Shown here one piece after another: positions 12,693-57,342 of a stretch of 64,000 nucleotides of DNA. The notes beneath the pieces were generated by a model. It was not told where the DNA came from, searched no databases, and was given only the letters and a program-made list of their open reading frames with translations. Numbering within the stretch: the first letter of the stretch is position 1; the number at the start of each line of letters is the position of its first letter. This DNA comes from Patescibacteria group bacterium (GTDB lineage Bacteria; Patescibacteriota; Patescibacteriia; UBA1558; GWA2-36-10), in contig JBAYIQ010000001.1 in NCBI GenBank assembly GCA_041665545.1, positions 137,911-201,910 of the forward strand. The letters are read 5' to 3'. The translations under genes and the position numbers were made by a program.

Positions 12693-12744
12693 CAAAAAAA
12701 ACAAGCCCCAACCTCTGCACGCGTTGTGCAAAAAAGGTTGGGGC
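12693..12744 (-). terminator. intrinsic terminator of high-GC cassette 1
   Basis: GCCCCAACC ... GGTTGGGGC stem followed by U-run on minus strand, 20 nt after stop. Confidence 0.7.
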
Positions 12745-12762
12745 CCGTACGAATCTTGGAAA

Positions 12763-14079
12763 CTAGGCGGCTTCCGCACCCTCGGCAATGTAGGGTGCGA
12801 TCGACCCGAGCTGTCTGTCCACCAGGACACGCAACTCGCTGCGACCAGCGAAATCGGTCTTAGCCACAGCATCGACGGCCAGTTTGACGGCCGAGCCGAT
12901 ATCGGGATTATTGAGAGCGGTGACCAGAGGCATCAGCTCAGCCAGACGAGCATCGCCCTTGCCCTCGGCAGTGATCACTGCGATCCTCTTGTCGAGGGCG
13001 GTCTTGACGACATCGATACGCTTGGCCGCCAGCTCGTTCAGTCGAGCCTGAACCTCTGGGCTGGGTGTCGGGTCCTCAATCAGAACACTCTTTACCTTAT
13101 AGCCCGAAACGCTTTCCAGCCGGGCAATGGCCTCATCCCAGTTCGCGTCTTCAAAGACGCCGCCGACTTGGATCTTCTCCAGAGTTTGACCCTTAAGGAG
13201 AACCCGAAAGTCAGCACCGAAGATTTCACTCGCATACTTGACCAAGCCGGCATCAGTCCGCACCTCGGGCGGAGCAGACCAATAGGCATTCAGATTCTCC
13301 GGCCCATCAAGAATGGGGATGAACTTAACATTTACATCTCCCCCGACCTCGATATCGGGTTCACCATCAAGACCTGGGATCTTGCCACCAAGAGTAGGTA
13401 TTTTCTCAGTGACACAAGAGAGTTGTAAACCACGTCTTTCCAGGACGACATTGAATTCGAGACCTGGGGCATTCCTAGGAATCTTCGTCCGGTGGAAACC
13501 GTTGTAGAAGACATACTTGTCGAACATCCACCAGGCGTGAAAGCAACGGCGTCCGAACAGTTTCGGCGTCCATAGTTCCTGCTCCGGAACCTGAATGTTC
13601 ATGATGGCCATCGTAGATCCCGTGGCCAACGACCAAAAAATCACGGTCACCATGTGACCAAATGTCAGGATACCCAAGGTCAGGCACACGCCAGTCACAA
13701 TTGTCGAATAGAATGCCCAGGTGTCTCGCTTGTTGCCAAGCCACGGCCGCGGTTTGTAGGTGTAGTAGGCCTGTAGCGCCGTAATAGCCGCAACGAGCAG
13801 TGCCAACACCACACGAAACCACGGGAAATTGTGGGAGACCTCCTTACCAGCTGTCTTTCCAACTGTCACAGCTGTCTTTACGTCCTCAACTACAGCCGAC
13901 GGCGCAAAAAACAGCCAGTGATGGTTCCAGGAAGCGGCCAGCACTCCCACAGCCAGCAAGGCCGTGGTAATGATCGCTCTCCACCCCACCTTCAGCTTTG
14001 TGCTGTTATTGACCAGCGCGGCAACAACGGACACGATGATCGCAATCACCGCATCAAGGACGAACTTGTTCTGAAACAT
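12763..14079 (-). CDS. high-GC membrane protein with C-terminal SPFH (band-7/prohibitin)-like domain (438 aa)
   Basis: AAAGGAGGGG RBS 2 nt before ATG; 4-5 N-terminal TMs; SPFH-like core (FGRR...PGLEFNVV...) and Ala/Glu-rich tail (AVITAEGKGDARLAEL); G+C-rich vs flanks. Confidence 0.75.
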   Translation of the reverse strand: MFQNKFVLDAVIAIIVSVVAALVNNSTKLKVGWRAIITTALLAVGVLAASWNHHWLFFAPSAVVEDVKTAVTVGKTAGKEVSHNFPWFRVVLALLVAAITALQAYYTYKPRPWLGNKRDTWAFYSTIVTGVCLTLGILTFGHMVTVIFWSLATGSTMAIMNIQVPEQELWTPKLFGRRCFHAWWMFDKYVFYNGFHRTKIPRNAPGLEFNVVLERRGLQLSCVTEKIPTLGGKIPGLDGEPDIEVGGDVNVKFIPILDGPENLNAYWSAPPEVRTDAGLVKYASEIFGADFRVLLKGQTLEKIQVGGVFEDANWDEAIARLESVSGYKVKSVLIEDPTPSPEVQARLNELAAKRIDVVKTALDKRIAVITAEGKGDARLAELMPLVTALNNPDIGSAVKLAVDAVAKTDFAGRSELRVLVDRQLGSIAPYIAEGAEAA

Positions 14080-14112
14080 GACCCCTCCTTTGGGGTAATA
14101 GGTTAACGATTG

Positions 14113-14141
14113 ACTATCTATACATTTCCAAGACTTGTCAA
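14113..14141 (-). promoter_or_regulatory. putative promoter of cassette 1 (TTGACA-N17-GATAGT)
   Basis: tgtcaa 14136-14141 and actatc 14113-14118 on plus strand, 17-nt spacer. Confidence 0.45.
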
Positions 14142-14388
14142 CGAACTTGCCAAAAACCTATGTTTTGTGACAATATATTATTATATCACTTTTTTCTATT
14201 TTAGTCAAGAAATAGCTGCTCCCCAATATTTGACACCAGGGCTTGTCAATTTAATACTAAAGTTTGATGTAACTACGTCTCGCACGCCAAAGCAAACTTT
14301 AATTAATAAATTAAATTTTTTTATAGGCCACTATCCCTCCTTAAGTGTCAAGCATTGGATTTTAACGCGACGGCGTGTCAATATTTTT

Positions 14389-15249
14389 CTACTTCTGACA
14401 AATTGGACAAAAATGTGTGCCTCTACCAGCTATTTTGTGTTTTTTTATTTCGGTTTTTTTACACTTTAGGCAGAGTTGTTTAGCGCGACCATAAACTTTC
14501 AAATATTTTACATAGGCCCCCCCGTTGCCATCTGCAGTCCGATAATCACTGAAAGTAGTGCCACCAAATTTTACTGCTTTGTTCATGATATAGTGACAAG
14601 CCTGGAAAATCTTTTTCTTATCTTGATCCCCAAGTGTGCTAACTCGCCTATCAGGCCTGACACTAGCCCGAAAACAAATTTCATCAGCATAGATATTGCC
14701 AATGCCGGAAAAAATCTGCTGATTCAATAAAACGCTTTTTAAGACACCACTTTTTTTATTTATGGCTGACAAAAAATTCGGTAACGTAAAATTTTTAGTC
14801 AATGGCTCGAGTCCATATTTTTTTCTAATTTCTTCTTTAGCCAAATGACTGACTATTTTGAAATAACCAAATTGCCGCAGATCATTGTAAAACAAAATAG
14901 ATTTATCAGAAAAATATAATATAATATGAGAATATTTATTGGGCAACTCTTGACTGATTGGCAAATTATGACCACCAGCCACAATATTTTTTTTATTTTT
15001 ATAGATCAATTGACCGGTCATTTTCAAATGCACCAGCAAATAATCATTACCTTTTTTTAATTTAAAAATTAAGAGCTTACCAACTCGATCTACCTTGGAA
15101 AAACTATTGCCTACTAATTTTTTTCTAAACTCAAAAATATCACCATGAATCTGTTTGATTTTGTGGATCTCTATTTTTACAATCTTTTTATTAACAATTT
15201 TGGCTTGCAAACCACGCCTAATTGTCTCAACTTCTGGTAGTTCTGGCAT
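14389..15249 (-). CDS. mutM: formamidopyrimidine-DNA glycosylase
   Basis: MPELPEVETIRRGL N-terminus, H2TH, C-terminal zinc finger CLKC...CPICQ. Confidence 0.9.
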   Translation of the reverse strand: MPELPEVETIRRGLQAKIVNKKIVKIEIHKIKQIHGDIFEFRKKLVGNSFSKVDRVGKLLIFKLKKGNDYLLVHLKMTGQLIYKNKKNIVAGGHNLPISQELPNKYSHIILYFSDKSILFYNDLRQFGYFKIVSHLAKEEIRKKYGLEPLTKNFTLPNFLSAINKKSGVLKSVLLNQQIFSGIGNIYADEICFRASVRPDRRVSTLGDQDKKKIFQACHYIMNKAVKFGGTTFSDYRTADGNGGAYVKYLKVYGRAKQLCLKCKKTEIKKHKIAGRGTHFCPICQK

Positions 15250-15337
15250 ATTTTTGTATTTTGCTCACCCCGTGAAATATAGCACATCAACCAAAAAATA
15301 AAAACGCCCCACAAGTGGGACGCTTTTATTCAATTTC

Positions 15338-17557
15338 TTAATATTGGTTTAGTACTGTATCTGTCACATTATAAATCTTATTTCCAGAATATTTTTTCAA
15401 TTCTTCCAAACTGACTATATGGACTTTTTTACCATTTATGATGACATATATTTTGCCATCATTGGCTTTTAACAAAGCGCCGTCGGAATAAAGCTTTATA
15501 CCATATATTTTACTAATTTTTCCTTGAGCGGCTTTATTATCAATTTTGGTTTCAACATATTGAGCTATTACTTCATCTGTCACATTGTATATTCTTTGAG
15601 CAAAATAGTTGTCATATAGATATTGCCAATTTGGTATATGATAAATCTGGTTACCAAGTACGTGATAAACTTCTGGTCCACAACCACGCACAAGAGATCC
15701 GGTAATAAATTCCATTACGCCTTTGATGTCACCATCGATATCTGGTTTACAGACGACTTCTTTGATACCCAAAACTTGTGGGGGTAATTGACCCAAGGTG
15801 TTTGGCGTAGTGAAGGTGCGATCAATGTCATAAGATGTACTGTTACCGCTATCTTTGGCTCTTATTTGATAATGATATGTGGTACTAGGCAACAAATCAG
15901 TTAGCGCCATAGTATGAGTAGCGTGATAATTGGTGCCTTGGTATTCGGAGCCATAAGAAGTGGAAGTACCATACAGCATCCAAGTCAGAGATTGACGAGT
16001 AGTTTCCCAAGTAATGTTGGCTGAATTAGTAGTTACGCTACTTTGAACATTAAATATATTGATGGGAATAAATCCGCCACCACCGCCACCACCACCGCCA
16101 GACGGTCCTGGCTGAGGATTAGGAGGCGTTATGGCAGTACACCTAGTACTACATACATCTGATCCATTGGGACCAGCGTCGCATTCTTCAGTACCAGTCA
16201 CTTCTCCATCACCACAAAATTGATCTACTGGAGCTGGGCACTGTAGCATTGGCGGTACAAAGTGGGCATAGCAAGCAACTTGATTATTTGGGATAACTAT
16301 TTGAGCGGCTAAGCTTACATCAGTCTGGTCAATAACTTCATCGTTATTTAAATCATAAAGAATATTATAATTACTATCGCCTGCTTGAGACCCGTCTGAA
16401 TCCTTTATACCCTGCCATAATCCCTGACACCAACCAATGTTGGTATAATTTTCGCAACTAAAGTGAAACTGGTCATTGGGATCTTCAAACTGCTGGTAAC
16501 ACTGGGCATCATCACCAGTGCCATGCATCAATGTCACAAAGGCCAAATCACTTAAATTAATAACTTCGTCGTTATTAATATCAGCTACATCATTATATAC
16601 TAAATGTGTTGAAGAGTTGGGATCAAAATAAGCTTTCAAAATGCCTAAAAGTGCACTGCACCAAGGAGCATAAGGTTTTGGCTCAGGTTCTTTTATTTTA
16701 CAAAGACGAACATCGTCAAGAAAAGTGCCATAACTATCACTTGGCCCAATGTCCTTAAAAGCTATTTCTGTATTTGTGCCATCAGCAGTAAATACGTAAT
16801 CAGAAGCGACCCAATTACTTTGAGCAAGTGGCGCAATACCAGTAGCCGGACCATTGGTAGCTACCTGATTACCATTAACTTCTACTGCTAGATTATTTTG
16901 CTCAGCAGCAATATCATGGCGGGCAGCAAATGACCAAAATAATTTATATTGTGCACCTACTTCTGTGACTATATTTTGTATTACACGTGTTGACTGGTCA
17001 CCATCAAGCTCAGAATATTGTAAGCCATCAGCTGCTATATTAGCACTCCATCCTCTGTGAAGCTCTAAAGTAGTAAGTGAATTATCAGAAACCTTTTCAA
17101 TTACCCAACCAGACACGGAGCTCATTATCTGCCACAAAGAACTATCTGTCACCATTGGCTCTTCAAAACTACCGTTTACAAAGAGATTGCTTTCTCCAGA
17201 ACATTCTTCTATCTCAATGAGTGTGCAGTTGGCCGTACAGGTAGCGGACCCACTTGGACCATCATCACATTGCTCACCTGGATCCAAAACTCCATTTCCA
17301 CACACTGGAGGAGGTACGGAACATTGTCCAGCTGTATCACCATGCTCTAAATGACCAGGAACGGCCTCTGGAGCCACCTTTATTTCCACCGCGCCTTCAC
17401 TAGTAGTGTGGCAAATGGAAACCAAAGTAATGTTTTCACTAATTAATTGATCACTAGTATCAATAGGCTGTTCAGCAAAGGCCGTTGCCCCACCTGACCA
17501 AACTATTACTGACAAGACGGCAAAACTAACAAAAATATTTTTTAATAATTTTTTCAT
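15338..17557 (-). CDS. secreted multidomain surface protein (Cys-rich repeats, dockerin-like Ca-binding loops, Gly9 linker, FN3-like domain)
   Basis: Signal peptide; two CGNGV/CGDGE..EQCD/EECD repeats; DINNDEVINLSD and DLNNDEVIDQTD; GGGGGGGGG; FN3-like ANITWETT...YHYQIRA. Confidence 0.7.
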   Translation of the reverse strand: MKKLLKNIFVSFAVLSVIVWSGGATAFAEQPIDTSDQLISENITLVSICHTTSEGAVEIKVAPEAVPGHLEHGDTAGQCSVPPPVCGNGVLDPGEQCDDGPSGSATCTANCTLIEIEECSGESNLFVNGSFEEPMVTDSSLWQIMSSVSGWVIEKVSDNSLTTLELHRGWSANIAADGLQYSELDGDQSTRVIQNIVTEVGAQYKLFWSFAARHDIAAEQNNLAVEVNGNQVATNGPATGIAPLAQSNWVASDYVFTADGTNTEIAFKDIGPSDSYGTFLDDVRLCKIKEPEPKPYAPWCSALLGILKAYFDPNSSTHLVYNDVADINNDEVINLSDLAFVTLMHGTGDDAQCYQQFEDPNDQFHFSCENYTNIGWCQGLWQGIKDSDGSQAGDSNYNILYDLNNDEVIDQTDVSLAAQIVIPNNQVACYAHFVPPMLQCPAPVDQFCGDGEVTGTEECDAGPNGSDVCSTRCTAITPPNPQPGPSGGGGGGGGGFIPINIFNVQSSVTTNSANITWETTRQSLTWMLYGTSTSYGSEYQGTNYHATHTMALTDLLPSTTYHYQIRAKDSGNSTSYDIDRTFTTPNTLGQLPPQVLGIKEVVCKPDIDGDIKGVMEFITGSLVRGCGPEVYHVLGNQIYHIPNWQYLYDNYFAQRIYNVTDEVIAQYVETKIDNKAAQGKISKIYGIKLYSDGALLKANDGKIYVIINGKKVHIVSLEELKKYSGNKIYNVTDTVLNQY

Positions 17558-17726
17558 AAGTGTAATTACTTAATTTAATTAAAATATATAAAAATAAAAA
17601 TTATTTTTTATTTTATAATAGCTATCGACTGATAAATATTATTAGAGTATTTTTATCGCTTTTAGTCAATGACAATAAAACGACCATCTACCATTTCTTC
17701 TTACCACAAATCACAGCTGGAGTCAA

Positions 17727-34994: not shown

Positions 34995-35368
34995 AAAAGA
35001 AAACAGGGAGGACTTTGCCTGATGGCGCGATCCTCCCTGTGCGTGGTACAAGCGGCCATTCGGCCGCGCGGCGTTCGGGCTTGGCCAAACATCCAGACTG
35101 CACCTGTCCAGACCCACTTGTAGACAACGGCGAATTCCGCTGTAGACGAATGGTCGTTGACCTTAGGGCTCCTAGCCGCAATACCCGATATCGGTGGGCT
35201 CCGCTGGCTCGGTATCAGCCAGAACAACGACTATGGCGTTGTTATGAGAAATATGTGGAGGCCCAAGCGCTTGGTATTTGGCCAGCTGACCAGCCGAACC
35301 CGCCAAGGGAAGAGCCGAACAGCGGTCTAGCCGTGGCTTTGGGCCCCCTTGAAAAAAGAGCGTACTAA
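34995..35368 (-). ncRNA. GC-rich structured RNA of unknown class (about 375 nt)
   Basis: Own promoter (35375-35403) and terminator CAGGGAGGA...UCCUCCCUG+U-run (35004-35039); many local hairpins; no ORF with RBS. Confidence 0.6.
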
Positions 35369-35374
35369 GGGGAA

Positions 35375-35403
35375 ATAGTAGCATAATATCTAATTTGTGT
35401 CAA
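35375..35403 (-). promoter_or_regulatory. promoter TTGACA-N17-TACTAT (TGc extended -10) of the 35-kb RNA
   Basis: tgtcaa 35398-35403, atagta 35375-35380 on plus strand. Confidence 0.55.
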
Positions 35404-41300: not shown

Positions 41301-41301
41301 A

Positions 41302-44849: not shown

Positions 44850-44870
44850 ATATCCCCCCCCTAGGGATAT
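44850..44870. promoter_or_regulatory. candidate CsoR operator ATATCCC-N7-GGGATAT overlapping the csoR promoter
   Basis: Inverted repeat around a C/G tract; a TATTAT -10 ends 6 nt before the csoR ATG (possibly leaderless mRNA). Confidence 0.5.
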
Positions 44871-44900
44871 AGTAACACATAGAATAAAATAGCACAATGT

Positions 44901-47585: not shown

Positions 47586-47710
47586 AAATTTTCTAAAGTC
47601 CAGTATTTTACTGTTGTCTAGCTATTTATTATACCAAAAAAACCTGTTTTGAGCGAAAATTTTGCTCTCCTCTTGAAACTTGCCGGCTTTTTCAGTATTA
47701 TTAACTCACT

Positions 47711-49525
47711 ATGGATATACAAAAACAGCTAATTGACCAGCTGGCTAAGACCATTGGCACTATATTGGAGCAAGCTGTCACCAGCGACGATCTTAAATTA
47801 TCAACTCCGCCACAAGAAAATTTAGGCGACTATGCTTTGGCTTGTTTTGTCTTGGCCAAAAAGAATAATATTTCTGCTCCTGAGCTAGCTAAAAAACTAG
47901 CTATAGCTTGGCCAAAGAATAATTTGTTTGCCACAGCGCAAGCTATGGGGCCCTATCTTAATATCAAAATGGACGCCAACAATTTTAGCAAGTTGGCCCT
48001 TGACGAAATTTTGAGCAATAAAAAATTTGGGCAAAACAACTCTGGTAAAAATAAAAAAGTTCTAATAGAATTTTCTAGCCCCAACACCAATAAGCCCCAA
48101 CACATTGGTCATATACGCAATAATCTTTTGGGGCAAAGTTTAGTAAATATTTATAGGACTTGTGGTTATAAAGTGACTAGTATGGTCAACATGAATGACC
48201 GTGGTATTCATATTGTCAAAAGCATGTTGGCTTGGCAGGAATTCGGGCAAAACGAGACACCACAAAGTACTGGTATCAAGGGCGACCACTTGGTCGGCAA
48301 ATATTATGTAAAATTTAGCCAACTACTAAAAGAAGAGGAAAAAGTATACCTGCTCAAAAATAATATTGATTTATCAAAGATCAATGATTTGGCCAAAAGA
48401 AAAATCAATGATGATTTTTTAAAACAATCTATTTGGATGCAGAAAGCTCATAAAATGCTTATCCTATGGGAAAAAAATGACCCCCAAATAAAAAAACTTT
48501 GGCAGACCATGAACTCTTGGGTTTATGAGGGCTATAAAAAAACCTATGATGATTTAGGTGTAAAATTTGACCACACTGATTATGAAAGCGAAAATTATCT
48601 ATTAGGTAAAGATATTGTTGACTTTGGTTTAAAAAATAAAGTTTTTTATAAAAAAGAAGATGGCTCTGTCTGGATTGATCTGACTAAAGAGGGCTTAGAT
48701 GAAAAGATAGTCTTGCGTAGTGATGGCACCTCTGTTTATATGACTCAAGACATGGGCACAGCTAAACGACGCTATGATAAGTTCAAATTTGACCAAGCAA
48801 TTTATGTAGTAGCTTCCGAGCAAGACTACCATTTTAAAGTATTATTTTTGATCTTAGCCAAACTTGGTTTTGCTTGGGCCAAAAACTTATATCATTTATC
48901 TTATGGCATGATTTCTACGCCTGACGGTAAAATAAAATCTCGCGAAGGCAAAACTGCTGATGCTGACGCTATTATTGAGGAGACAATCGCCCGTTCCAAA
49001 ACCATGATGGCTCAAGCCGAAAAAAAGAACCTAAAACAAAATGATCAGGAAGCTATTGCCAAAGACGTAGCTATGGCGGCTATCAAATTCTGCATGCTTG
49101 GTACCAATCCGCAAAAAAATATTGTTTATGATGCCCAAAGCTCTATCACGCTTGATGGCTACACTGGACCATTTGTCCAATATACTCATGCTCGTATTTC
49201 TAGCATCCTAAACAAAGCTGAAAAAGTAAAAAAAATTAACTGGTCTACCTTACAAATAAACGCCGAGGAAATAAAATTAATCAAACAATTGGTACTTTAT
49301 CCGGAAATCATCAAACAAGCCGCTCTAGAATATAATCCAGCCGTACTGACTCACTATCTTTTTGACTTGGCTAAAATATTTAATAATTTTTATCAGCAAC
49401 ACTCAGTATTATCAGCTGACAATGAAGCTCAGAAAAATTTTAGATTAAATATTTGCCTGAGTTGCCGACAAATCATAGCCGCTGGTTTGGAAATTTGCGG
49501 TATCAAGGCCCCAAAAATAATGTAG
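47711..49525 (+). CDS. argS: arginyl-tRNA synthetase
   Basis: SSPNTNKPQHIGHIRN (HIGH), class I core, DALR-type C-terminus. Confidence 0.9.
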   Translation: MDIQKQLIDQLAKTIGTILEQAVTSDDLKLSTPPQENLGDYALACFVLAKKNNISAPELAKKLAIAWPKNNLFATAQAMGPYLNIKMDANNFSKLALDEILSNKKFGQNNSGKNKKVLIEFSSPNTNKPQHIGHIRNNLLGQSLVNIYRTCGYKVTSMVNMNDRGIHIVKSMLAWQEFGQNETPQSTGIKGDHLVGKYYVKFSQLLKEEEKVYLLKNNIDLSKINDLAKRKINDDFLKQSIWMQKAHKMLILWEKNDPQIKKLWQTMNSWVYEGYKKTYDDLGVKFDHTDYESENYLLGKDIVDFGLKNKVFYKKEDGSVWIDLTKEGLDEKIVLRSDGTSVYMTQDMGTAKRRYDKFKFDQAIYVVASEQDYHFKVLFLILAKLGFAWAKNLYHLSYGMISTPDGKIKSREGKTADADAIIEETIARSKTMMAQAEKKNLKQNDQEAIAKDVAMAAIKFCMLGTNPQKNIVYDAQSSITLDGYTGPFVQYTHARISSILNKAEKVKKINWSTLQINAEEIKLIKQLVLYPEIIKQAALEYNPAVLTHYLFDLAKIFNNFYQQHSVLSADNEAQKNFRLNICLSCRQIIAAGLEICGIKAPKIM

Positions 49526-49562
49526 TTAATTATTAATTTTTAAAAAGAAAGTTTTACAAAAA

Positions 49563-50735
49563 ATGGACAAAAAATTATACAAGTATTGGAGCGAGGAAGA
49601 ATTTAAAAAAGCCAAGGACTTTGCCGCCAACAAGCAAACTCCTTTTTTATTAATTGATCCTAAGCGCGTTGCTAAAAAATACAAAAGTTTAAAGGCCAAC
49701 CTACCCTTGGCCAAAATATACTACGCCATGAAGGCCAACCCGCACGATGAAATCATCAGGACTTTGGCTGACTTGGGCTCAAATTTTGATGTGGCTTCTA
49801 TTTTTGAAATACAAAACTTGATGGACTTGGGTATTGCTGGCGACCGCATGAGCTTTGGCAATCCAGCCAAAAAAGAATCAGATATTATATTTGCCTACCA
49901 ACATGGCATCAGGATATTTGTCACTGATTCCATGGATGATGTGCACAAATTAGCCAAAAATGCTCCTGGCGCCAAAGTTTTTTTCCGCTTACTATTTGAA
50001 GGCAATGGCGCTGTCTGGCCATTATCCAAAAAATTTGGTGCTCATCCTGATATGTTGTACAAACTTATCTTGGAAGCCAAAAATCTAGGTCTAGAGCCCT
50101 GTGGCATTTCCTTTCATGTTGGCTCCCAACAAAAAGATATTGGTCAATGGGATCACGCTCTTTCTTTGTGCAAATACATGTTTGACACTATGAAATCCGA
50201 GGGCTTGGAGCTCAAAGCTATCAACTTGGGTGGTGGCCTACCAACCAAATATGTCGGACCAATACCCAGTCTAAAAAAATACACTGACGTTATCAACCGT
50301 TTGCTTAGTGAAAATTTTGGCGACAATATGCCAGAAATAATGATTGAACCCGGCAGATATATTGCTGGCGACTGCGGTATGATCATCAGTGAAATAATTT
50401 TGATTTCCAAAAAATCCGAGACCTCTGAACATCGCTGGGTTTATATTGATGTCGGAAACTTTACTGGCTTGTGTGAAACCGAAGAAGTGATTTTTCCGAT
50501 CTACGCTGACCCAGAAATTTATCTTCCAGGACAAACCTCGGAAAGCGAAGTAATATTGGCTGGACCAACTTGCGATTCCTCGGATATTATTTACCAAAAC
50601 TACAAGCATAAATTGCCCGATGATCTCAAAGAGGGTGATCGACTGTATGTCATGAGCACTGGCGCTTACACCTATGCTTACAGCGCTGTTTGTTTCAATG
50701 GCTTTCCAGTTTTGAAAACTTATATCCTAAGATAA
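49563..50735 (+). CDS. PLP-dependent decarboxylase, ornithine/DAP/arginine decarboxylase family 2
   Basis: IYYAMKANP PLP-lysine motif, GGGLP, C-terminal beta-barrel. Confidence 0.8.
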   Translation: MDKKLYKYWSEEEFKKAKDFAANKQTPFLLIDPKRVAKKYKSLKANLPLAKIYYAMKANPHDEIIRTLADLGSNFDVASIFEIQNLMDLGIAGDRMSFGNPAKKESDIIFAYQHGIRIFVTDSMDDVHKLAKNAPGAKVFFRLLFEGNGAVWPLSKKFGAHPDMLYKLILEAKNLGLEPCGISFHVGSQQKDIGQWDHALSLCKYMFDTMKSEGLELKAINLGGGLPTKYVGPIPSLKKYTDVINRLLSENFGDNMPEIMIEPGRYIAGDCGMIISEIILISKKSETSEHRWVYIDVGNFTGLCETEEVIFPIYADPEIYLPGQTSESEVILAGPTCDSSDIIYQNYKHKLPDDLKEGDRLYVMSTGAYTYAYSAVCFNGFPVLKTYILR

Positions 50736-50836
50736 ACAAAAAAACGCCCTGCAATTTCTGTGGGGTGTTTTTTATTTTAAACAAAATTAAGAACGCGTCC
50801 CCGAAGAAACGCGTTCTGGAAAGAACAGGCCTACTT

Positions 50837-51253
50837 TCACTTGCTCACACTGGGAAAATGCGGGTCACGGTACTCGTCATTGTCGTCTTTGACAACGAAA
50901 GGAGAAACATCCTCCAAGCGCAACTCGGTGGTGCAGATGAAGGGTGACGACTCGACGACACGCGGTGGTTGAAACAGATTGGCCTCAGGAGTCAGCTTAG
51001 AGGCCAAAAAGTCCCGAATCCTCCTATGCCAGAGCAAGCCCAATGGCTTCTTGTTCTTCCTTTGCCAGACCAACTCCAAGCGCCAAGGCCTTTCCTCAGC
51101 CGTGATCGACACCTCCAAGCCACGATGGCTGATGTACTTCATAATCTCCGGCAACAGTAGCCCAAGCTGCTGACCCAGATGCCTCCTGACAGCCAAGGTG
51201 TTGACATGACGACCGTTAGCGAACTTAATGTCAGCTCTTTTCTTACCGACCAT
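50837..51253 (-). CDS. high-GC hypothetical protein (138 aa)
   Basis: CAAGGAGGAA RBS 6 nt before ATG; own promoter; hairpin AGAACGCGT...ACGCGTTCT terminator (50790-50818). Confidence 0.6.
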   Translation of the reverse strand: MVGKKRADIKFANGRHVNTLAVRRHLGQQLGLLLPEIMKYISHRGLEVSITAEERPWRLELVWQRKNKKPLGLLWHRRIRDFLASKLTPEANLFQPPRVVESSPFICTTELRLEDVSPFVVKDDNDEYRDPHFPSVSK

Positions 51254-51303
51254 GAGCTATTCCTCCTTGAAGGTTCAAGTGCCCCAAAAAATGGGAATAT
51301 GAT

Positions 51304-51332
51304 AACATATAATATTTATCCCCTCTTGTCAA
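51304..51332 (-). promoter_or_regulatory. promoter of cassette 3 (TTGACA-N17-TATGTT)
   Basis: tgtcaa 51327-51332 on plus strand. Confidence 0.45.
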
Positions 51333-51382
51333 TGGCAAAACAAAAAAACAACCCAGTGGGTTGATTATTAATAATGCATGCT

Positions 51383-51507
51383 CTCGTGTCCCTCGACTCA
51401 CTCCGTTCGCTCGGGACACTCGATTCGCAGGAATGAGAATGGTCGGAGGTGCGATAAAGCACCGTAGACCACGAGTGAGTCTTTTGCAAAGCAAAAGGCG
51501 AATCGAG
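51383..51507 (-). repeat. tRNA-trailer structured element, copy E3 (fused to CCA of tRNA-Lys)
   Basis: 125 nt; near-identical to E1 over the tRNA-proximal ~70 nt; followed by AACCCACUGGGUU+U7 terminator (51347-51372). Confidence 0.7.
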
Positions 51508-51584
51508 TGGTGCGCCCAGTAGGATTCGAACCTACGACCGTTTGCTTAAAAGGCAACTGCTCTACCAGGCTGAGCTATAGGCGC
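51508..51584 (-). tRNA. tRNA-Lys (anticodon TTT), CCA encoded
   Basis: GCGCCTA/TGGGCGC acceptor, loop CTTTTAA, T arm GTAGGTTCGAATCCTAC. Confidence 0.9.
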
Positions 51585-51607
51585 ATAAATATAAAAATAC
51601 GCAAATT

Positions 51608-51636
51608 ATTATAGATTAATTATTGGGTATTGTCAA
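51608..51636 (-). promoter_or_regulatory. tRNA-Lys promoter TTGACA-N17-TATAAT
   Basis: tgtcaa 51631-51636, attata 51608-51613 on plus strand. Confidence 0.6.
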
Positions 51637-51666
51637 TTTTGCTTTAATACACCTTTAGCGCTGTTA

Positions 51667-51695
51667 TTGACAAAAATAAATAAATATGATATAGT
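51667..51695 (+). promoter_or_regulatory. promoter of cassette 4 (TTGACA-N17-TATAGT, TGa extended -10)
   Basis: TTGACA 51667-51672, TATAGT 51690-51695; 5' UTR hairpin TCCTAATCAGA/TCTGATTAGGA. Confidence 0.55.
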
Positions 51696-51800
51696 AACGA
51701 ACTTGTTCTTTATAAACTCCTAATCAGAATTTTGTCCAGCAAATTGCCTGATAAAGCTCTGATTAGGAAACTATCACTTCTCTGAACTGGAGGACTTACC

Positions 51801-52700
51801 ATGGATTACCCGCGGAACTCGGTCTGCATCTATCACAGTGCGGACAATGACGGCGCTTGCAGTGCGGCCATCGCCAAGTTGGCGGCTCGTGTCAGACTGA
51901 TCCCCTGGAATTATGGACACCCCATACCCTGGGAGAGAATACCCGTCGGCGCTACGATCTTTGTGGTCGATCTGCTGCTCACCAGCCAGAACGACAACAG
52001 TGGTTTCCAGGACATGGAGCGCCTGCGCAAGATCGGTAAGCTCGTCTGGATTGACCATCACGACAAGGCCATCAACGACGCCAAAGTGTTGGGTTTGGCC
52101 TATGATGGCATCCAGCGAGTTGGTCAGGGCGCTTGCGCTTTGACCTGGGAATATTTCTTCCCCAACAAGCCCATGCCCGAAGCAGTCCGGCTGATCAGTA
52201 ACTTCGATGTCTTTGACCATAGGGAGGTAAAGACAGTCCATTTCCAGTACGGCTTGCGTGCTTGCAATGCCAAGCCCTGGATGGACATTTGGAAAGATCT
52301 TCTTAAGCCACCCTTCCAAAGCGATGCTCTGGTCAACCAGCTGGTCAGTGATGGTATCCCCATCACCAAGTACCTGACCTTGGAATTCGCCCGCTACATG
52401 CGAGTCTGTGGCTTCGAGACTATTCTCGACGGGCACCGTGCCATTGCGGTGAATCGTGCTCTGGTCAACAGCCAGATCTTCGAATCTGTACACAACCTCG
52501 AAGACTATCCGTTGCAGATGTACTTTTACTGGAGCTCTGACGGCTCATGGAAGGTGAGCATGCGTTCGCCCGACGGTCGCGTGAACTGTGCAGAACTCGC
52601 AGCCAAGTACGGTGGTGGCGGACACAGCCGAGCAGCCAGTTTCGTGTGCCAGGAACTGCGCTTTGAACTCAAAGGGCGACCTGACGCCGATCCTGACTGA
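51801..52700 (+). CDS. high-GC DHH/DHHA1-family phosphoesterase (NrnA-like, 299 aa)
   Basis: YHSADNDGACS (DHH motifs I-II), WIDHHDK (DHH), YGGGGHSRAAS (DHHA1 GGGH); CTGGAGGAC RBS. Confidence 0.85.
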   Translation: MDYPRNSVCIYHSADNDGACSAAIAKLAARVRLIPWNYGHPIPWERIPVGATIFVVDLLLTSQNDNSGFQDMERLRKIGKLVWIDHHDKAINDAKVLGLAYDGIQRVGQGACALTWEYFFPNKPMPEAVRLISNFDVFDHREVKTVHFQYGLRACNAKPWMDIWKDLLKPPFQSDALVNQLVSDGIPITKYLTLEFARYMRVCGFETILDGHRAIAVNRALVNSQIFESVHNLEDYPLQMYFYWSSDGSWKVSMRSPDGRVNCAELAAKYGGGGHSRAASFVCQELRFELKGRPDADPD

Positions 52701-52719
52701 GTAACGAGAAGTTGATCCT

Positions 52720-52762
52720 GACCCCGGCTAGTGGCAACACTGGTCGGGGTCTTAAATTTGTT
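52720..52762 (+). terminator. terminator of cassette 4
   Basis: GACCCCG ... CGGGGTC stem then TTAAATTTGTTT. Confidence 0.6.
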
Positions 52763-52855
52763 TATAATTTATAAATATTGGGTATAAATTGTATATAAAC
52801 CCGGCTTGAAAAAAGCCGGGAAATGGGTTAAGCTAATCCTACATTAAGCAAACCC

Positions 52856-54301
52856 ATGCTAAAAATACCTCCGCAAAACATAGAGGCTGAAGCCAGTATT
52901 TTAGGCGCTTTATTGATAGACAAAGAAGCCATCATCAAAGTAGCCGATGTTTTACGTTCTGATGATTTTTATAAAGACAGCCATGGCTTGATTTACCAAG
53001 CCATTCTTGATTTGTTTGAAAAGCATGAGCCAATTGATATTTTATCAATGGCCAATCGCTTGAGCGAAAAAAAACAACTGGAAGCAATTGGTGGCAAATC
53101 ATACTTAGCCGAACTGACAGCGTCTGTACCCAATGCTTCACATGTGGCCAACTATGCCAGCATTATCCGTAAAAAAGCCACCTTGCGCAAACTAGAACAA
53201 GCGGCCTCAGAAATCAGCGAATTTAGTTTTTCGGAAGATCAGGATGTGGAAAAATTATTGGATCGTGCTGAACAAAAACTTTTTGCTATTTCCCAGTCTT
53301 CGCTGAAAAGAAACTTTATACCCATCAAAAATGTTTTAAATGATGCCTTTGCTCGTATTGATGAATTACACAAAACTGGTGGCCAAGGCACCAGAGGCAT
53401 ACCTACTGGCTATACTGGTCTAGACAAAATCCTATCCGGTTTACAAAAATCCGATCTCATCATTTTGGCCGCTCGCCCATCTTTGGGCAAAACCACTTTG
53501 GCTTTGGACTTAGTGCGTCATGTGGCTATTCGTGCCAAAGTACCGGTCGGCATCTTTTCTTTGGAAATGTCCAAAGAACAATTGGTTGACAAACTGCTAG
53601 CGGCCGAGGCGCAAGTAGATCTGTGGCGCATGCGCACTGGCAAATTATCCGATCGTGAGGAAGATGATGATTTTCCCCGCATTGGCAAAGCCATGGGTGT
53701 GCTATCTGAAGCACCAATTTTTATTGACGACTCTCCTAACATCAGCATCATGGAAATCCGCACCAAAGCTCGTCGCCTCAAAATGGAACATAATTTGGGC
53801 TTTTTGGTAGTTGACTATTTACAACTCATGGACTCTGGTGGTCGCCAAGAAAACCGCGTCCAAGAAATATCAGAAATATCTAGAGCTTTAAAACAAATTG
53901 CCAGAGAGCTTGATATACCGGTCATGGCGCTATCTCAATTATCCAGAGCCGTGGAAAGCCGCTCGCCAGCCATACCAAAATTGGCTGACTTGAGAGAATC
54001 TGGCTCCATTGAACAAGATGCTGATATTGTTATGTTTATTTATCGCCGAGCCAAAGACAAAAGTCGCGGTGAGTGCCCTGAAGAAGAAAAATTTGTAGCC
54101 GAAATTCACATTGATAAACACCGCAATGGCCCGACTGGCTTGACCCGCTTATTCTTTGACGAAAACAAAGTAACCTTCAAAAACTTGGACACTGACAAAT
54201 CAGAAATACAAGATCAGACCGGCTCCGGCCAAGGCAATATCCAAGAGCCAATATCCAGCGAAGAATTCCCCGTGGCTGGCGGCTGGCAAAATATACCCTA
54301 A
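52856..54301 (+). CDS. dnaB: replicative DNA helicase
   Basis: PPQNIEAEASILGALL N-terminus, Walker A ARPSLGKTT, DYLQLM, RecA-like core. Confidence 0.9.
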   Translation: MLKIPPQNIEAEASILGALLIDKEAIIKVADVLRSDDFYKDSHGLIYQAILDLFEKHEPIDILSMANRLSEKKQLEAIGGKSYLAELTASVPNASHVANYASIIRKKATLRKLEQAASEISEFSFSEDQDVEKLLDRAEQKLFAISQSSLKRNFIPIKNVLNDAFARIDELHKTGGQGTRGIPTGYTGLDKILSGLQKSDLIILAARPSLGKTTLALDLVRHVAIRAKVPVGIFSLEMSKEQLVDKLLAAEAQVDLWRMRTGKLSDREEDDDFPRIGKAMGVLSEAPIFIDDSPNISIMEIRTKARRLKMEHNLGFLVVDYLQLMDSGGRQENRVQEISEISRALKQIARELDIPVMALSQLSRAVESRSPAIPKLADLRESGSIEQDADIVMFIYRRAKDKSRGECPEEEKFVAEIHIDKHRNGPTGLTRLFFDENKVTFKNLDTDKSEIQDQTGSGQGNIQEPISSEEFPVAGGWQNIP

Positions 54302-54310
54302 TTAGTAAAA

Positions 54311-54329
54311 AGTATCGCCCACAGGGCGA
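54311..54329. repeat. GC hairpin repeat AGTATCGCCCACAGGGCGA (copies at 1267-1285 inverted and 28197-28213)
   Basis: 19-nt identity between 54311-54329 and reverse complement of 1267-1285; 28197-28213 differs at 1-2 positions. Confidence 0.8.
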
Positions 54330-54459
54330 TAAAGTTTCAAGGTTAGAAAGTAAAAACATCCCTTAAATAAAAACTGATCCTTGAAACTTCAAACAAACAC
54401 ATATATAATACGGCTGTAACTTTTAAACTTTCGACTTTAATAACTTTTAACTAAATTTT

Positions 54460-54753
54460 ATGTTTAATAAACTAAAACAATTCAACGATTTGAGAAAACA
54501 AGCTGGCGTTCTAAAAAATGCCTTGGCTGGAGAAATTGTTGAAGTAGAAAATAAAGCTGTTAAAATAACTATGGATGGCAACCAAGAAATAAAAAGCTTG
54601 GAAATAAAACCAGAATTCATGCACACTGAAAAGAAAACTGAGCTAGAACAAGAGCTTAAAAATGCTTTTGCAGAAAGCATCAAAAAAGTCCAACGCAAAA
54701 TGGCCATGAAAATGCAATCTATGGGTGGTTTTGACATGCCGGGATTAAAATAA
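54460..54753 (+). CDS. ybaB: nucleoid-associated protein YbaB/EbfC
   Basis: 97 aa, LKQ...AG.G.V.V...G...I.S..I pattern; upstream of recR as usual. Confidence 0.8.
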   Translation: MFNKLKQFNDLRKQAGVLKNALAGEIVEVENKAVKITMDGNQEIKSLEIKPEFMHTEKKTELEQELKNAFAESIKKVQRKMAMKMQSMGGFDMPGLK

Positions 54754-54835
54754 TGCGCCCCGTTAAAAATTCACGAAAAAAACTATTTTTTATTTACGAA
54801 ATCTGCACTAGCTAAATACATAAATTTTTAACGAG

Positions 54836-55426
54836 GTGAAACATCTACCAGATTTTATCCAAAAATTAATCAATGAATTTGATAAACTGCCGGGCATTGG
54901 GCCAAAAACATCCACTCGGTTGGTTTTTGATTTACTGCATCGTCGCGAGGACATCCAGGAATTTGCCAAAAGTTTGAACGAGGCCTATGAAAAAGTTCAT
55001 TTCTGTCCCCAGTGCTTCAATCTGACAGATACGGGACTCTGCAATATCTGTCGTGATCCCCAGCGGGACCAAAGTATTATTTGCGTTATTGCTCACAACC
55101 AAGATATTGAAGCTATTGAAAGAACCAATGAATTCACTGGCACCTACCATTTGCTTAATGGACTCTTGGGACCACTAGAAGGCATCACGCCTGATAAACT
55201 AAAAATTAAAGAACTGCTCGAGAGAGTCAAAAAAAATAACATCAAAGAAATTATTCTGGCGCTTGACCAAAGTATGGAAGGCGGAGCCACCACTATGTAT
55301 CTTTTGAAAATTCTGGCTGACAAAAATGTTGTGGTCAGTCAGCTAGCCCGTGGCATACCCATGGGCGCCAATATAGAATACACGGACGAAGTCACACTGT
55401 CTTCGGCCTTAAAAAATAGAAAATAA
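54836..55426 (+). CDS. recR: recombination protein RecR
   Basis: LPGIGPKTSTRL HhH, Cys4 zinc finger CPQC...CNIC, Toprim domain; GTG start. Confidence 0.9.
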   Translation: MKHLPDFIQKLINEFDKLPGIGPKTSTRLVFDLLHRREDIQEFAKSLNEAYEKVHFCPQCFNLTDTGLCNICRDPQRDQSIICVIAHNQDIEAIERTNEFTGTYHLLNGLLGPLEGITPDKLKIKELLERVKKNNIKEIILALDQSMEGGATTMYLLKILADKNVVVSQLARGIPMGANIEYTDEVTLSSALKNRK

Positions 55427-55453
55427 AATACCCCGCAGCTAGCGGGGATTTTT

Positions 55454-55774
55454 TTATTTAGTAACAATCTTTTCGATGTTTACTTCTTCTTTGATTTGTC
55501 TGTGACCGTATCTTTTTCGATAACGAGTTTTGTTGTGGTATTTGAAAACATCAATTTTCTTCTCTTTGAATTCTTTGACCAAGGTAGCTTCAACTTTAGC
55601 ACCTTTGACCAAAGGAGCACCAACCGTAATATTTTCTTTATCATCGATTATAGCCAACACTTCTTCAAAAACAACAGTTTGACCTGCTGTAGTGCCTTTT
55701 ATTCTTTCGACGCTTAATTTTTGCCCAGTGGCAATCAAATATTGTTTACCACCAGTTCTGATTATTGCTTTCAT
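55454..55774 (-). CDS. rplU: 50S ribosomal protein L21
   Basis: MKAIIRTGGKQY... and C-terminal GHRQ motif. Confidence 0.9.
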   Translation of the reverse strand: MKAIIRTGGKQYLIATGQKLSVERIKGTTAGQTVVFEEVLAIIDDKENITVGAPLVKGAKVEATLVKEFKEKKIDVFKYHNKTRYRKRYGHRQIKEEVNIEKIVTK

Positions 55775-55805
55775 AAAATCTATAGCTATTTTTAATACGG
55801 GTTAA

Positions 55806-55834
55806 ATATTAACAAAGATTAGCAATTGTGTCAA
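55806..55834 (-). promoter_or_regulatory. rplU promoter TTGACA-N17-TAATAT
   Basis: tgtcaa 55829-55834, atatta 55806-55811 on plus strand. Confidence 0.5.
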
Positions 55835-55853
55835 TAATACTGAATACACGCCA

Positions 55854-55882
55854 TTGACAAGATATGAAATGTGTGATATAAT
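55854..55882 (+). promoter_or_regulatory. promoter of cassette 5 (TTGACA-N17-TATAAT, TGa extended -10)
   Basis: TTGACA 55854-55859, TATAAT 55877-55882; 5' UTR hairpin CGTGGT/ACCACG. Confidence 0.6.
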
Positions 55883-55958
55883 ATAAAATCGTGGTTAATT
55901 TCTACCACGTGCACCTTAGCAAGACACAAGGTAAATATGGCCAATGGAGGTCCTTGAA

Positions 55959-56693
55959 ATGGAAAAGACCGAAAAGACCGCCTTTGCTGTTCTGCACATG
56001 AGCCGTCACGAATCCAGCTCGCCCCAAGCCAACTATGGCCTGGGAACACTGGGTCCCATGGACTACCGCGGAATCCCGGTTCGCTACCACCCCAATTCCT
56101 TCATGCGTGACTCCGGTTACCGCATGCTGGAAATCCAGCTCCCGAAGAACCAGAACGAAGCGGGAGTCGCGATGGCTGTCATGCACGCAGGTCAGATTCG
56201 GGGAGCCATCAGTTCCCTGCAGGATCAGCTCAACAGTCTGACACCGGAAAAGATCTCCCACTACAACCTGATGATCAACGAACTGCTTCGCAAGGGCTAC
56301 CTGATGCACAGCCAAGTCCTCTACTTCAAACCCTGGCAATCCGGTCTCGTGGCCAAGTACGGCTGGGGCATCAATGGCTCTGGTGGCATGGTCATGTTCG
56401 GACAGAACAACTTCGGACAGAGCTTCGGAGTACAGGCCGGACACCAGCTGGTGCAGGTGGTCTTCCGACCCACTCCGTACGCCGACGGACTGATCTGTCG
56501 CTACGGCTGGGGCATCACCGTATGCCAGCCGGAAAGCATCAAACGTGTGCTGAGTGGTCTGCGCAAGCAGCTCGACAACGCCGTGTTCTTCCAGGAGCAC
56601 GGCTGTCTACTCGAAGACTTCGATCGGCCGAGTCTGGCATGCCGACTGATCGCCCGTCAGGCGACCCACGCGTGCCAGCAAACCACCGCATAG
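55959..56693 (+). CDS. high-GC hypothetical protein (244 aa) with duplicated YGWGI motif
   Basis: GGAGG 8 nt before ATG 55959 (tracked ORF starts 55944); VAKYGWGINGSGG and ICRYGWGITVCQ; no family recognised. Confidence 0.65.
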   Translation: MEKTEKTAFAVLHMSRHESSSPQANYGLGTLGPMDYRGIPVRYHPNSFMRDSGYRMLEIQLPKNQNEAGVAMAVMHAGQIRGAISSLQDQLNSLTPEKISHYNLMINELLRKGYLMHSQVLYFKPWQSGLVAKYGWGINGSGGMVMFGQNNFGQSFGVQAGHQLVQVVFRPTPYADGLICRYGWGITVCQPESIKRVLSGLRKQLDNAVFFQEHGCLLEDFDRPSLACRLIARQATHACQQTTA

Positions 56694-56721
56694 CGAGCAA
56701 CTGCTTGCTACGGTGACAACG

Positions 56722-56768
56722 ACAGGACATTTTCTGACGCCAAGCGTCTGAAGGTGTCCTGTTTTCTT
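56722..56768 (+). terminator. terminator of cassette 5
   Basis: ACAGGACA ... TGTCCTGT stem then TTTTCTT. Confidence 0.7.
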
Positions 56769-56771
56769 ATA

Positions 56772-56800
56772 TTGACAATAGCTATATTATATGCTATAAT
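56772..56800 (+). promoter_or_regulatory. promoter of cassette 6 (TTGACA-N17-TATAAT, TGc extended -10)
   Basis: TTGACA 56772-56777, TATAAT 56795-56800. Confidence 0.6.
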
Positions 56801-56858
56801 ATTAAATGTACCCCAGGATTCTAGTCTCGGGTTGTTCATTTCCAAGGAGGGATTTCTC

Positions 56859-57257
56859 ATGAGTCCGAAACAGCTTGCTGCCATCCCGTTCTGCATTTTG
56901 ACCGTAGTTGCCATGTTCTTATGGGTTGCCGGTCGTCCCACTGGCAAGCCCGACACAACGCGACTCTTCTCAATTGGGACTGATGCCCATCAGGTTCCGT
57001 GTGGTGACATCGGCTACGATGCCACCTTCCGCTACTATGCCGGAAACGACACGGCGGGCGTGACGGTAGCCAATCTCAATCCCGGGCTCGTAACGATCCA
57101 TCTCATGGATCGCCTGAGCAGGGATATCTACGGACGCAAACCCGTGCGGATCAACGGTGATCAGGCCAACCTGGAGATCATCAACAACGCCACCAATGAG
57201 GTGATTTGCCGCTGGCAGATCACCATCGATCGTCAGGTCGGTGTTGCCACCCGCTGA
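56859..57257 (+). CDS. high-GC small membrane-anchored/secreted protein (132 aa)
   Basis: CAAGGAGGGA RBS 7 nt before ATG 56859; N-terminal hydrophobic helix AAIPFCILTVVAMFLWVAG. Confidence 0.65.
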   Translation: MSPKQLAAIPFCILTVVAMFLWVAGRPTGKPDTTRLFSIGTDAHQVPCGDIGYDATFRYYAGNDTAGVTVANLNPGLVTIHLMDRLSRDIYGRKPVRINGDQANLEIINNATNEVICRWQITIDRQVGVATR

Positions 57258-57297
57258 GTACGCCCTCCTCCGGTCAGGCCACAAATGCCCGACCAAA

Positions 57298-57342
57298 ACT
57301 CGTCGTCCATATCTTTTGGATCAAGCGACGAGTTTTCTTTTT
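57298..57342 (+). terminator. terminator of cassette 6
   Basis: ACTCGTCG ... CGACGAGT stem then TTTTCTTTTT. Confidence 0.7.

Follow-up and report, generated by a model that had tools for sequence, protein, structure and literature searches.

Six G+C-rich, Shine-Dalgarno-led single-gene units of a Patescibacteria chromosome: a possible clade-specific pool of recombining cassettes

Phage morons, as described by Hendrix, Juhala and colleagues, are reportedly autonomous promoter-ORF-terminator units (ORF, open reading frame) found in lambdoid and other phage genomes, inserted where two genes otherwise adjoin. Bacterial pangenomics knows hypervariable genomic islets, or flexible-genome hot spots, next to tRNA genes, and integron cassettes are promoterless units with a shared 3' attC site and an IntI integrase encoded nearby. 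Here we describe six G+C-rich single-gene units that share features with each of these systems. They were found in a stretch of 64,000 nucleotides from a Patescibacteria group bacterium (assembly GCA_041665545.1, contig JBAYIQ010000001.1, positions 137,911 to 201,910), called the window below, which is part of the 295,640-bp Joint Genome Institute (JGI) metagenome contig Ga0376277_0000288 (overall GC 0.397). All six carry a strong Shine-Dalgarno (SD) box in surroundings where such boxes are rare, for which there is a precedent of another kind: in the Bacteroidia translation is SD-blind, and a few SD-led genes such as rpsU are regulated by bS21 masking of the anti-SD (PMC7797042, PMC9976891, PMC13000453).

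The units are numbered C1 to C6 by position and were compared with the 51-52 other genes of the window. C1 (12701-14208, minus strand; ORF 14079-12763, 438 amino acids), C2 (30176-30489, minus strand; ORF 30412-30221, 63 amino acids) and C3 (50790-51332, minus strand; ORF 51253-50837, 138 amino acids) are followed by C4 (51667-52763, plus strand; ORF 51801-52700, 299 amino acids), C5 (55854-56770, plus strand; ORF 55959-56693, 244 amino acids) and C6 (56772-57345, plus strand; ORF 56859-57257, 132 amino acids). Their neighbours are core genes, namely mutM, dnaB, recR, rplU, murE and argS; the gene called rpmA in the initial annotation is rplU (L21). On balance we lean towards the view that the six units are drawn from a pool of autonomous cassettes that depend on SD pairing, recombine within one clade and are carried on conserved expression platforms. 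A full-text literature search found no published description of SD-led, GC-rich slot cassettes.

Base composition separates the cassette ORFs completely from their surroundings. They have a GC content of 0.53-0.58 and a GC content at third codon positions (GC3) of 0.64-0.80, as compared to a GC3 of 0.25-0.48 for the 52 other genes, so that the ranges are disjoint. Codon usage is inverted relative to the core genes: AAG makes up 81% in the cassettes and 23% in the core, CTG 43% and 10%, ATC 66% and 17%, and TTC 69% and 12%, while A occupies the third position at a frequency of 0.10 in the cassettes and 0.28 in the core. The description of these ORFs as G+C-rich among A+T-rich neighbours is thus borne out by both GC3 and codon usage. 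The GC contents at first and second codon positions (GC1, GC2) are also higher, and accordingly Arg and Pro are more frequent in the products, Lys and Ile less so. The GC-rich part of each unit is the ORF only; promoter and leader are AT-rich and typical of the clade.

A composition and codon usage of this kind resemble those of a genome of 55-60% GC, and could be explained if a block of DNA had recently been acquired from a GC-rich bacterium, such as the episymbiont's host cell, and were still slowly ameliorating; versions of lower GC content at two relatives' loci (L088 and L090, see below) could be such ameliorated copies. We consider this explanation very unlikely. The inserted unit includes the AT-rich clade-type promoter and leader, in agreement with the initial statement that the units are not what a simple block transfer out of a GC-rich genome predicts, and since promoter and leader move with the unit, any donors would be members of the same clade or their mobile elements. 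The families are also rare. An exhaustive HMMER search with C1, C2, C3, C5 and C6 against 1.84 billion representative proteins gave 20 matches in total, none of them for C2, and revealed no GC-rich bacterial donor; the nine genomic contexts of cassette homologues that were examined were all the same chromosomal slots, in Patescibacteria. By these searches the families of C1, C3, C5 and C6 appear to be tiny, clade-restricted orphans. The transfer hypothesis further has to account for the GC3 of 0.55-0.75 that is kept in alleles with saturated synonymous sites. A compositional island from a GC-rich donor was likewise set aside, as the ORF alone is GC-rich and no donor appeared among the 1.84 billion representatives.

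Translation signals divide the window in the same way. GGAGG is present 4-8 nucleotides before the ATG of all six cassette ORFs. It is part of AGGAGG in C1 (AAAGGAGGGG, GGAGG at 14088-14084), C2 (AAGGAGGG, 30422-30418), C3 (CAAGGAGGA, 51266-51262) and C6 (CAAGGAGGG, 56846-56850), and of TGGAGG in C4 (51789-51793) and C5 (55946-55950), so that the AGGAGG box that had been assigned to each unit holds in its GGAGG part for every cassette and in full for all except C4 and C5. With the canonical anti-SD, from which the 3' end of the host 16S rRNA may differ, the predicted pairing energies are -9.3 to -12.3 kcal/mol for the six cassettes and -7.5 kcal/mol or weaker (mean -0.66) for the 51 other genes, compared with -1.72 for random 20-mers from the window. 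The core leaders thus pair more weakly than random sequence, as the reported lack of SDs in host genes implied, and the SD 4-mer core occurs in just one of the 51. Their positions -7 to -2 contain 53-61% A and 4-8% G, with 67% T at -1; this A-rich, Kozak-like context resembles the one described for Bacteroidia (PMC13000457). Core genes that lack SDs and have A-rich leaders, as would accompany an SD-led regulon, are therefore what the window contains. Inspection of seven relatives showed that their strong SDs, too, are nearly confined to GC-rich ORFs in the slots. A regulon of the Bacteroidia type would call for a 16S anti-SD that is present yet sequestered by bS21, bS18 and bS6, with ribosomes that lack bS21 translating the SD-led mRNAs. 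The 16S 3' end was sought in all 180 loci and was present in none, and neither 16S rRNA nor rpsU lies within the window or any fetched locus.

This dichotomy allows a more far-reaching proposal, which we put forward tentatively and with rather low confidence: the clade may possess two expression regimes, an SD-independent AT-rich core and a small, hypervariable, SD-led set whose ORFs are exchanged among lineages on conserved platforms and actively kept GC-rich with inverted codon usage, so that composition and SD together would amount to an orthogonal translation channel. If so, possible channels are an unmasking of the anti-SD, a specialised pool of ribosomes or, where the anti-SD is lacking, a non-standard ribosome.

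Sequence comparison with relatives showed how the units vary. The relatives' loci, designated by L-numbers, were fetched via DnaB or via the contexts of cassette homologues; by its DnaB relatives the genome falls near Uhrbacteria, Magasanikbacteria and Moranbacteria. For C1, C3 and C6, every relative examined has a member of the family in the corresponding slot (L083, L180, L173, L176, L003 and L087), with promoter, leader, SD and terminator mostly 80-98% identical and ORFs of only 32-70% amino acid identity in which synonymous sites are saturated; these alleles are all still GC-rich and SD-led. Most core proteins of L173 are 92-99% identical to those of the window, with a synonymous divergence (dS) of 0.35-0.67. 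C3 is 68-70% identical to its L173 counterpart at the amino acid level (BLAST or global alignment) with a dS of about 2 and a dN/dS ratio of 0.11, by which it appears to be under purifying selection; further members of its family are found at this slot in L089, L003 and L176 (34% identity in L003 and L176), all of them GC-rich and SD-led. The C6 ORF is 32% identical to that of L173, with a proportion of synonymous differences (pS) of 0.76, which is saturated; its amino acid identity to L173 and L087 is 32-38%, and promoter, leader and terminator are 82-91% identical. In L173 (10416-10559) and L087 (about 1010-1150) the C6-like gene is succeeded by a conserved ORF of 47 amino acids that is preceded by a GAAAGGA box. 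It is missing from the window, and the terminator beyond it is conserved.

At the C1 locus of L180, mutM is 92% identical (about 90% at the nucleotide level) and the promoter and leader 93-98%; the first 180 nucleotides of the C1 ORF are 85-93% identical and the remainder is at random level, after which the terminator is 80% identical, the DUF5663 protein 22% and the next gene 90-95% (nucleotides). We take this locus to be a probable recombination mosaic. In the more distant L083 the C1 protein is 43% identical and sits in the same slot behind the same promoter, with a conserved leader box and compensatory changes in the terminator stem. The mosaic may reach beyond the cassettes: argS (47711-49525, plus strand) is an outlier against L173, with 82% identity and a dS of 1.11 as compared to 0.35-0.67 for its neighbours, which suggests recombination there as well. 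The DUF5663 gene beside C1 (12338-12640, minus strand) is AT-rich, lacks an SD and is also hypervariable, with 22-25% identity in L180 and L083; mutM, two genes away, is the 92% identical gene mentioned above. Upstream of C1, the segment 14210-14376, which is missing in the close relative L180, contains an orphan TTGACA, a AAGGAGGG box and just a 6-codon ORF; it may be what is left of another cassette that has decayed.

Because the C1, C3 and C6 alleles are saturated while residing in AT-rich genomes with shared flanks, their GC-richness does not look like the decaying relic of one recent import. Such persistence is also what would be expected if the units are a small class of native genes that are very highly expressed or specially regulated, with GC-rich codons, SD, promoter and hairpins selected together, for instance to make the mRNA long-lived or to have it translated by a sub-population of ribosomes; the model would be bS21 masking in Bacteroidia, with its selective translation of an SD-led gene. 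The strong constraint on promoter, leader and terminator fits this, as do promoters equal to those of tRNA and probable RNase P RNA genes and A-rich, G-poor core leaders as in Bacteroidia (PMC7797042, PMC9976891). We nevertheless regard this explanation as unlikely for the set of six, since genomes that are nearly identical differ in whether they have C4 and C5, and since C4 is of phage origin. The amino acid composition is shifted too (raised GC1 and GC2), the ribosomal protein genes of the window are not GC-rich, and the cassette mRNAs show no extra structure: in codon-shuffle comparisons their folding z-scores (-0.4 to -3.9) were not distinguishable from those of core genes (-0.8 to -2.3).

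The behaviour of C4 and C5 is different. Both are missing in a close relative with a 98% identical DnaB. L173, L089, L003 and L176 lack the segment 51678-52763, which begins in the spacer of the C4 promoter and ends shortly after the terminator, and L173 and L087 lack the C5 unit, with clean C4/C5 junctions in the relatives. The initial annotation regarded all six cassettes as foreign, a view to which cassettes that are syntenic in all relatives would be opposed. C1, C3 and C6 are in part of that type, with the same slots and conserved flanks in relatives, and a recent foreign import does not suit at least these three; for C4 and C5 it is supported by their presence or absence as whole units. 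A C5-family gene (27-31% amino acid identity, GC3 0.75) is found at the rplU-murE slot of L084-L086. The same slot of L004, L005, L176, L086 and L090 contains unrelated small ORFs, several of them membrane-anchored; searches of Pfam and PHROGs with eight slot ORFs from relatives gave no match. An SD precedes nearly all slot ORFs of relatives, and the majority have a high GC content (GC3 0.55-0.75). The same architecture is seen in relatives from other samples and is missing at the corresponding locus of more distant Patescibacteria. Next to C6, the AT-rich segment 57356-58222 is missing in L173; it contains a 158-residue ORF (57400-57876) with a TTG start, no SD and no Pfam match, and its absence from L173 indicates that the rplU-tRNA-Val slot turns over AT-rich content too.

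C4 is predicted from its sequence to be a DHH/DHHA1 phosphoesterase. The DHHA1 domain scores 26.6 bits in Pfam (cut-off 25.9) and the DHH domain 23.4 bits, below its cut-off of 28.1; the match to the phage DHH family PHROG 4771 has an E value of 5e-37, and the motifs VWIDHHDK (DHH) and YGGGGHS (GGGH) can be read in the protein. Two homologues that were looked up, among the best matches (41-44% identity), are both encoded in phage genomes, on contigs of GC 0.44-0.51 and in SD-led genes. One of these genomes has ERF, YqaJ and tail genes, and the other has terminase and portal genes and an Acb2/Tad1-like gene. Given these homologues and the indel, C4 is best seen as a phage-derived, recently inserted unit. 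The Acb2/Tad1-like hairpin protein is encoded 2.5 kb from the DHH gene (L171, 13343-13561, and L172), which hints that the phage enzyme might be part of an anti-defence or nucleotide-signal region; the phage contig L170 also encodes a homologue of ribosomal protein bL12 (288-632).

It could accordingly be proposed that all units are phage morons or prophage remnants, delivered by phages of this clade and then retained, with a GC-richness and SDs that mirror the phage gene pool. The initial comparison with morons is upheld by the autonomous anatomy, which is that of the moron definition, by C4 and C5, which as whole units separate genes that adjoin each other in relatives, and by the phage family and SD-led phage homologues of C4; it is not upheld by the context, since Pfam scans detected no phage structural, integrase or repressor genes in the window. 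Viral relatives of the other cassettes were not found: IMG/VR contained no relatives of C1, C4, C5 or C6 (C5 and C6 searched by family alignment), GenBank phage tblastn searches with C1, C2, C3, C5 and C6 gave no match, and taken together C1, C2, C3, C5 and C6 have no viral relatives in these searches, of which the IMG/VR scan covered C1, C5 and C6. With the C1, C3 and C6 families chromosomal and syntenic in every relative examined, and with promoters of the host stable-RNA type that are conserved in relatives, we judge a phage origin of the set as a whole to be distinctly unlikely.

The anatomy of the units is that of monocistronic genes with their own promoter and terminator, as initially described for all six. 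The promoters, all of strong sigma-70 type, are TTGACT-N17-TGaTATAAT for C1 (14208-14180), TTGACA-N17-CATAAT for C2 (30489-30461), TTGACA-N17-TATGTT for C3 (51332-51304), TTGACA-N17-TGaTATAGT for C4 (51667-51695), TTGACA-N17-TGaTATAAT for C5 (55854-55882) and TTGACA-N17-TGcTATAAT for C6 (56772-56800), with a TGn extended -10 element in C1, C4, C5 and C6. The TTGACT at 14208, which is kept in relatives, is the true C1 promoter, not a TTGACA within the leader. The consensus TTGACA-N16-18-TATAAT is matched at 11 or more of 12 positions by 14 sites of the window, of which five are cassette promoters and three others lie upstream of tRNA-Lys, the probable RNase P RNA gene and a GC-rich unit at 26341; the C3 promoter scores 10/12. 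The promoters therefore look native, as was noted before: they are of the host clade's own type, as at the tRNA and probable rnpB genes. The C1 leader of about 94 nucleotides carries the conserved box GTTCGTTGACAAGTCTTGGAA. A hairpin, thought at first to be usual in the 5' leaders, is significant in C4 alone (50 nucleotides, 51718-51768; z -4.5) and marginal in C1 (z -1.9); in the remaining four it is not significant. Each of the six ends in a strong terminator hairpin (z -3.0 to -6.8) with a U tract behind it, located at 12748-12701 (C1), 30211-30176 (C2), 50817-50790 (C3), 52720-52751 (C4), 56721-56763 (C5) and, as two hairpins, 57272-57294 and 57295-57336 (C6).

No flank repeats common to the cassettes were found beyond the -35, -10 and SD motifs, and the scanned window ORFs include no integrase, transposase or other mobility gene. 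C5 is flanked by two copies of ATTGACAA (55853-55860 and 56771-56778). This 8-bp direct repeat was considered as a target-site duplication and rejected, being the extended -35 motif common to all cassette promoters. Small free-standing GIY-YIG nuclease genes (80-85 amino acids, very AT-rich) occur at 19980-20222 (minus strand) beside tRNA genes and, in a similar form, within the variable rplU-murE slot of L084 (1666-1923).

The cassette products are for the most part without recognized relatives: PADLOC and NCBIfam gave nothing useful, and PDB profile searches yielded nothing significant. The C1 protein has no Pfam match. It has N-terminal transmembrane helices, and in the AlphaFold2 (AF2) model the C-terminal half behind them resembles an SPFH/stomatin-like domain. 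Residues 220-430 are predicted with a local confidence score (pLDDT) of 70-89, and in a Foldseek search the top 24 PDB matches are all SPFH proteins, with low template modelling (TM) scores, probabilities of 0.57-1.0 and a best E value of 4e-3. Of the two product assignments of the initial annotation, the DHH/DHHA1 protein of C4 is supported by Pfam, PHROG and motifs, and the SPFH-like protein of C1, more tentatively, by its structure model. The C3 model (pLDDT 80) is a small alpha/beta protein whose best outcome in fold searches was a weak similarity to YajQ, of a generic alpha/beta kind; C5 contains an internal YGWG repeat and C6 consists of an N-terminal transmembrane anchor and a small domain. 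C2 encodes a basic, Cys/His-rich protein (GC3 0.80), is convergent with the probable RNase P RNA gene and has no gene call in the JGI record; neither the search of 1.84 billion representatives nor that of GenBank phages returned a match to C2 itself or to any relative, which makes C2 less certain than any other unit.

Could the units be an artefact, caused by chimeric assembly or by non-coding GC-rich DNA with chance open frames? GC-rich DNA readily yields long chance ORFs, antisense ORFs of more than 230 codons are indeed present within C1, C4 and C5, and C2 went uncalled at JGI. Yet the neighbours of C1 are identical in the independent Logan assembly SRR6484324, which shows for the C1 junctions, where this check was made, that the unit is not chimeric, and relatives from other samples have the same architecture. 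The cassettes also have the order GC3 > GC1 > GC2 that is typical of coding sequence. Family alignments display conserved motifs, and together with the purifying selection on C3 these indicate real genes; DHH/DHHA1 domains in C4 and confident models for C3 and the C1 C-terminus point the same way. An artefact therefore has a negligible probability in our estimation.

The window also contains several GC-rich units of RNA type. The one convergent with C2 (29713-30180, plus strand) would give an RNA of about 430 nucleotides after an 11/12 promoter with TGn. Its label as rnpB is supported by the P4-like motifs GAGAAGTCCTGGGG and ACAGGCCTCGGCTTACC, identified by eye, and not by Rfam, in which no family matched at E<=1; as an rnpB it would have to be a highly divergent one. 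A unit of about 300 nucleotides just upstream of scpA (26000-26341, minus strand; 11/12 promoter TTGACA-N17-TATAAG with TGn) has no plausible ORF and no Rfam match and is possibly an unrecognised stable RNA. Another of about 370 nucleotides (35000-35400, minus strand) has its own promoter, a hairpin and U terminator and no long ORF; with noise-level Rfam matches only, it is a candidate for a divergent tmRNA, 6S RNA, signal recognition particle (SRP) RNA or a novel RNA. Copies of a GC-rich repeat, 50-130 nucleotides long and 84-96% identical to one another (51387-51513, 19552-19669, 19754-19798 and 58095-58147), are found directly 3' of tRNA-Lys, tRNA-Thr, tRNA-Tyr and tRNA-Val, and several copies follow tRNAs in L173. 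The idea that the cassettes cluster beside stable-RNA genes fails for C1, which adjoins none.

In the recombining-pool model that we favour, the units together would form a flexible gene set of one Patescibacteria clade. The intergenic hot spots would be mutM/DUF5663, ODC/tRNA-Lys/dnaB and rplU/tRNA-Val/Glu/murE, at which whole units could be gained or lost, or an ORF be swapped by recombination for a deeply divergent allele with retention of the expression signals. Core translation would start without SD pairing, via the A-rich, G-poor leaders, whereas the GC-rich cassette mRNAs, which have no A-rich unstructured leader, would need SD/anti-SD pairing to recruit the 30S subunit, and each unit would be insulated from its neighbours by its own terminator. 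GC-richness and inverted codon usage may be kept by selection (on mRNA, codons or the translation regime) or by a biased process; alternatively, the alleles may mostly reside in an unseen, GC-richer reservoir with the same flanks. GC-biased gene conversion seems unlikely as the sole cause, as the recombining conserved flanks are AT-rich and the non-alignable ORF cores GC-rich. A diversity-generating retroelement was rejected, since whole ORFs diverge, with indels, instead of showing adenine-specific changes in a short variable repeat.

A number of observations weigh against this model. Allele exchange is deduced from the mosaic pattern of identity along a few contigs, and a locally raised mutation rate could likewise inflate dS. 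A compositional pressure would explain the higher GC1 and GC2 no less well than selection would, and the codon-shuffle z-scores reveal no mRNA structure in the cassettes beyond that given by composition. L090 has three slot ORFs with an SD that are barely enriched (GC3 0.44 vs 0.36), and the C3 homologue of L088 is not enriched at all (GC3 0.36), yet retains GGAGG; GC-richness thus has exceptions, and origin and amelioration may account for part of it. C2 has no support from comparison with relatives. Finally, use of the SD by the host ribosome is assumed, and about half of the Parcubacteria 16S genes reportedly lack an anti-SD motif (PMC9297842).

The contrast is nevertheless of interest because it exists within a single genome: some 50 core genes without SD are set against a few accessory genes whose near-perfect SDs are kept across divergent alleles, and little is known on translation initiation in the candidate phyla radiation (CPR). 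It also raises the question what holds a gene class 20-35 GC3 points above the genome despite saturated synonymous sites. In addition, the hot spots offer candidates for fast-turnover surface or host-interaction and nucleotide-signalling proteins of an episymbiotic lineage, including the SPFH-like membrane protein, the membrane-anchored small proteins and the phage-type DHH phosphoesterase.

In comparison with the known systems, the cassettes resemble integron cassettes in being single-gene modules, more than one of which can accumulate side by side in a given slot (C5 with C6, and likewise in L086 and L090), but were rejected as such because they have their own promoters, no attC-like 3' repeat and no integrase among the scanned ORFs. 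Similar to genomic islets, they occupy fixed slots, some beside tRNA genes, with mosaic flanks and a content that varies among close relatives; unlike islets they are single-gene units with individually conserved expression platforms, GC-richness and SD are uniform across unrelated cargo, and the window scans detected no integrase or transposase. Like morons, all six have a promoter, a single ORF and a terminator of their own and a composition unlike their surroundings; C4 and C5 part genes that are direct neighbours in relatives, and the cargo of C4 comes from a phage family. Unlike morons, the cassettes lie in a bacterial chromosome among core genes (dnaB, rplU, mutM) and not in a phage or prophage. 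The slots of C1, C3 and C6 are filled by the same families in all relatives examined, these three being long-term residents with conserved flanks and hyper-divergent ORFs, and the mode of translation initiation would differ from that of the host. By analogy, the closest mechanistic precedent would be found in Bacteroidia, where the ribosome is SD-blind and rpsU is SD-led: there, too, an SD-less core with A-rich leaders coexists with very few strong-SD genes, although the cassettes described here belong to another phylum and are hypervariable, compositionally distinct accessory genes instead of rpsU.

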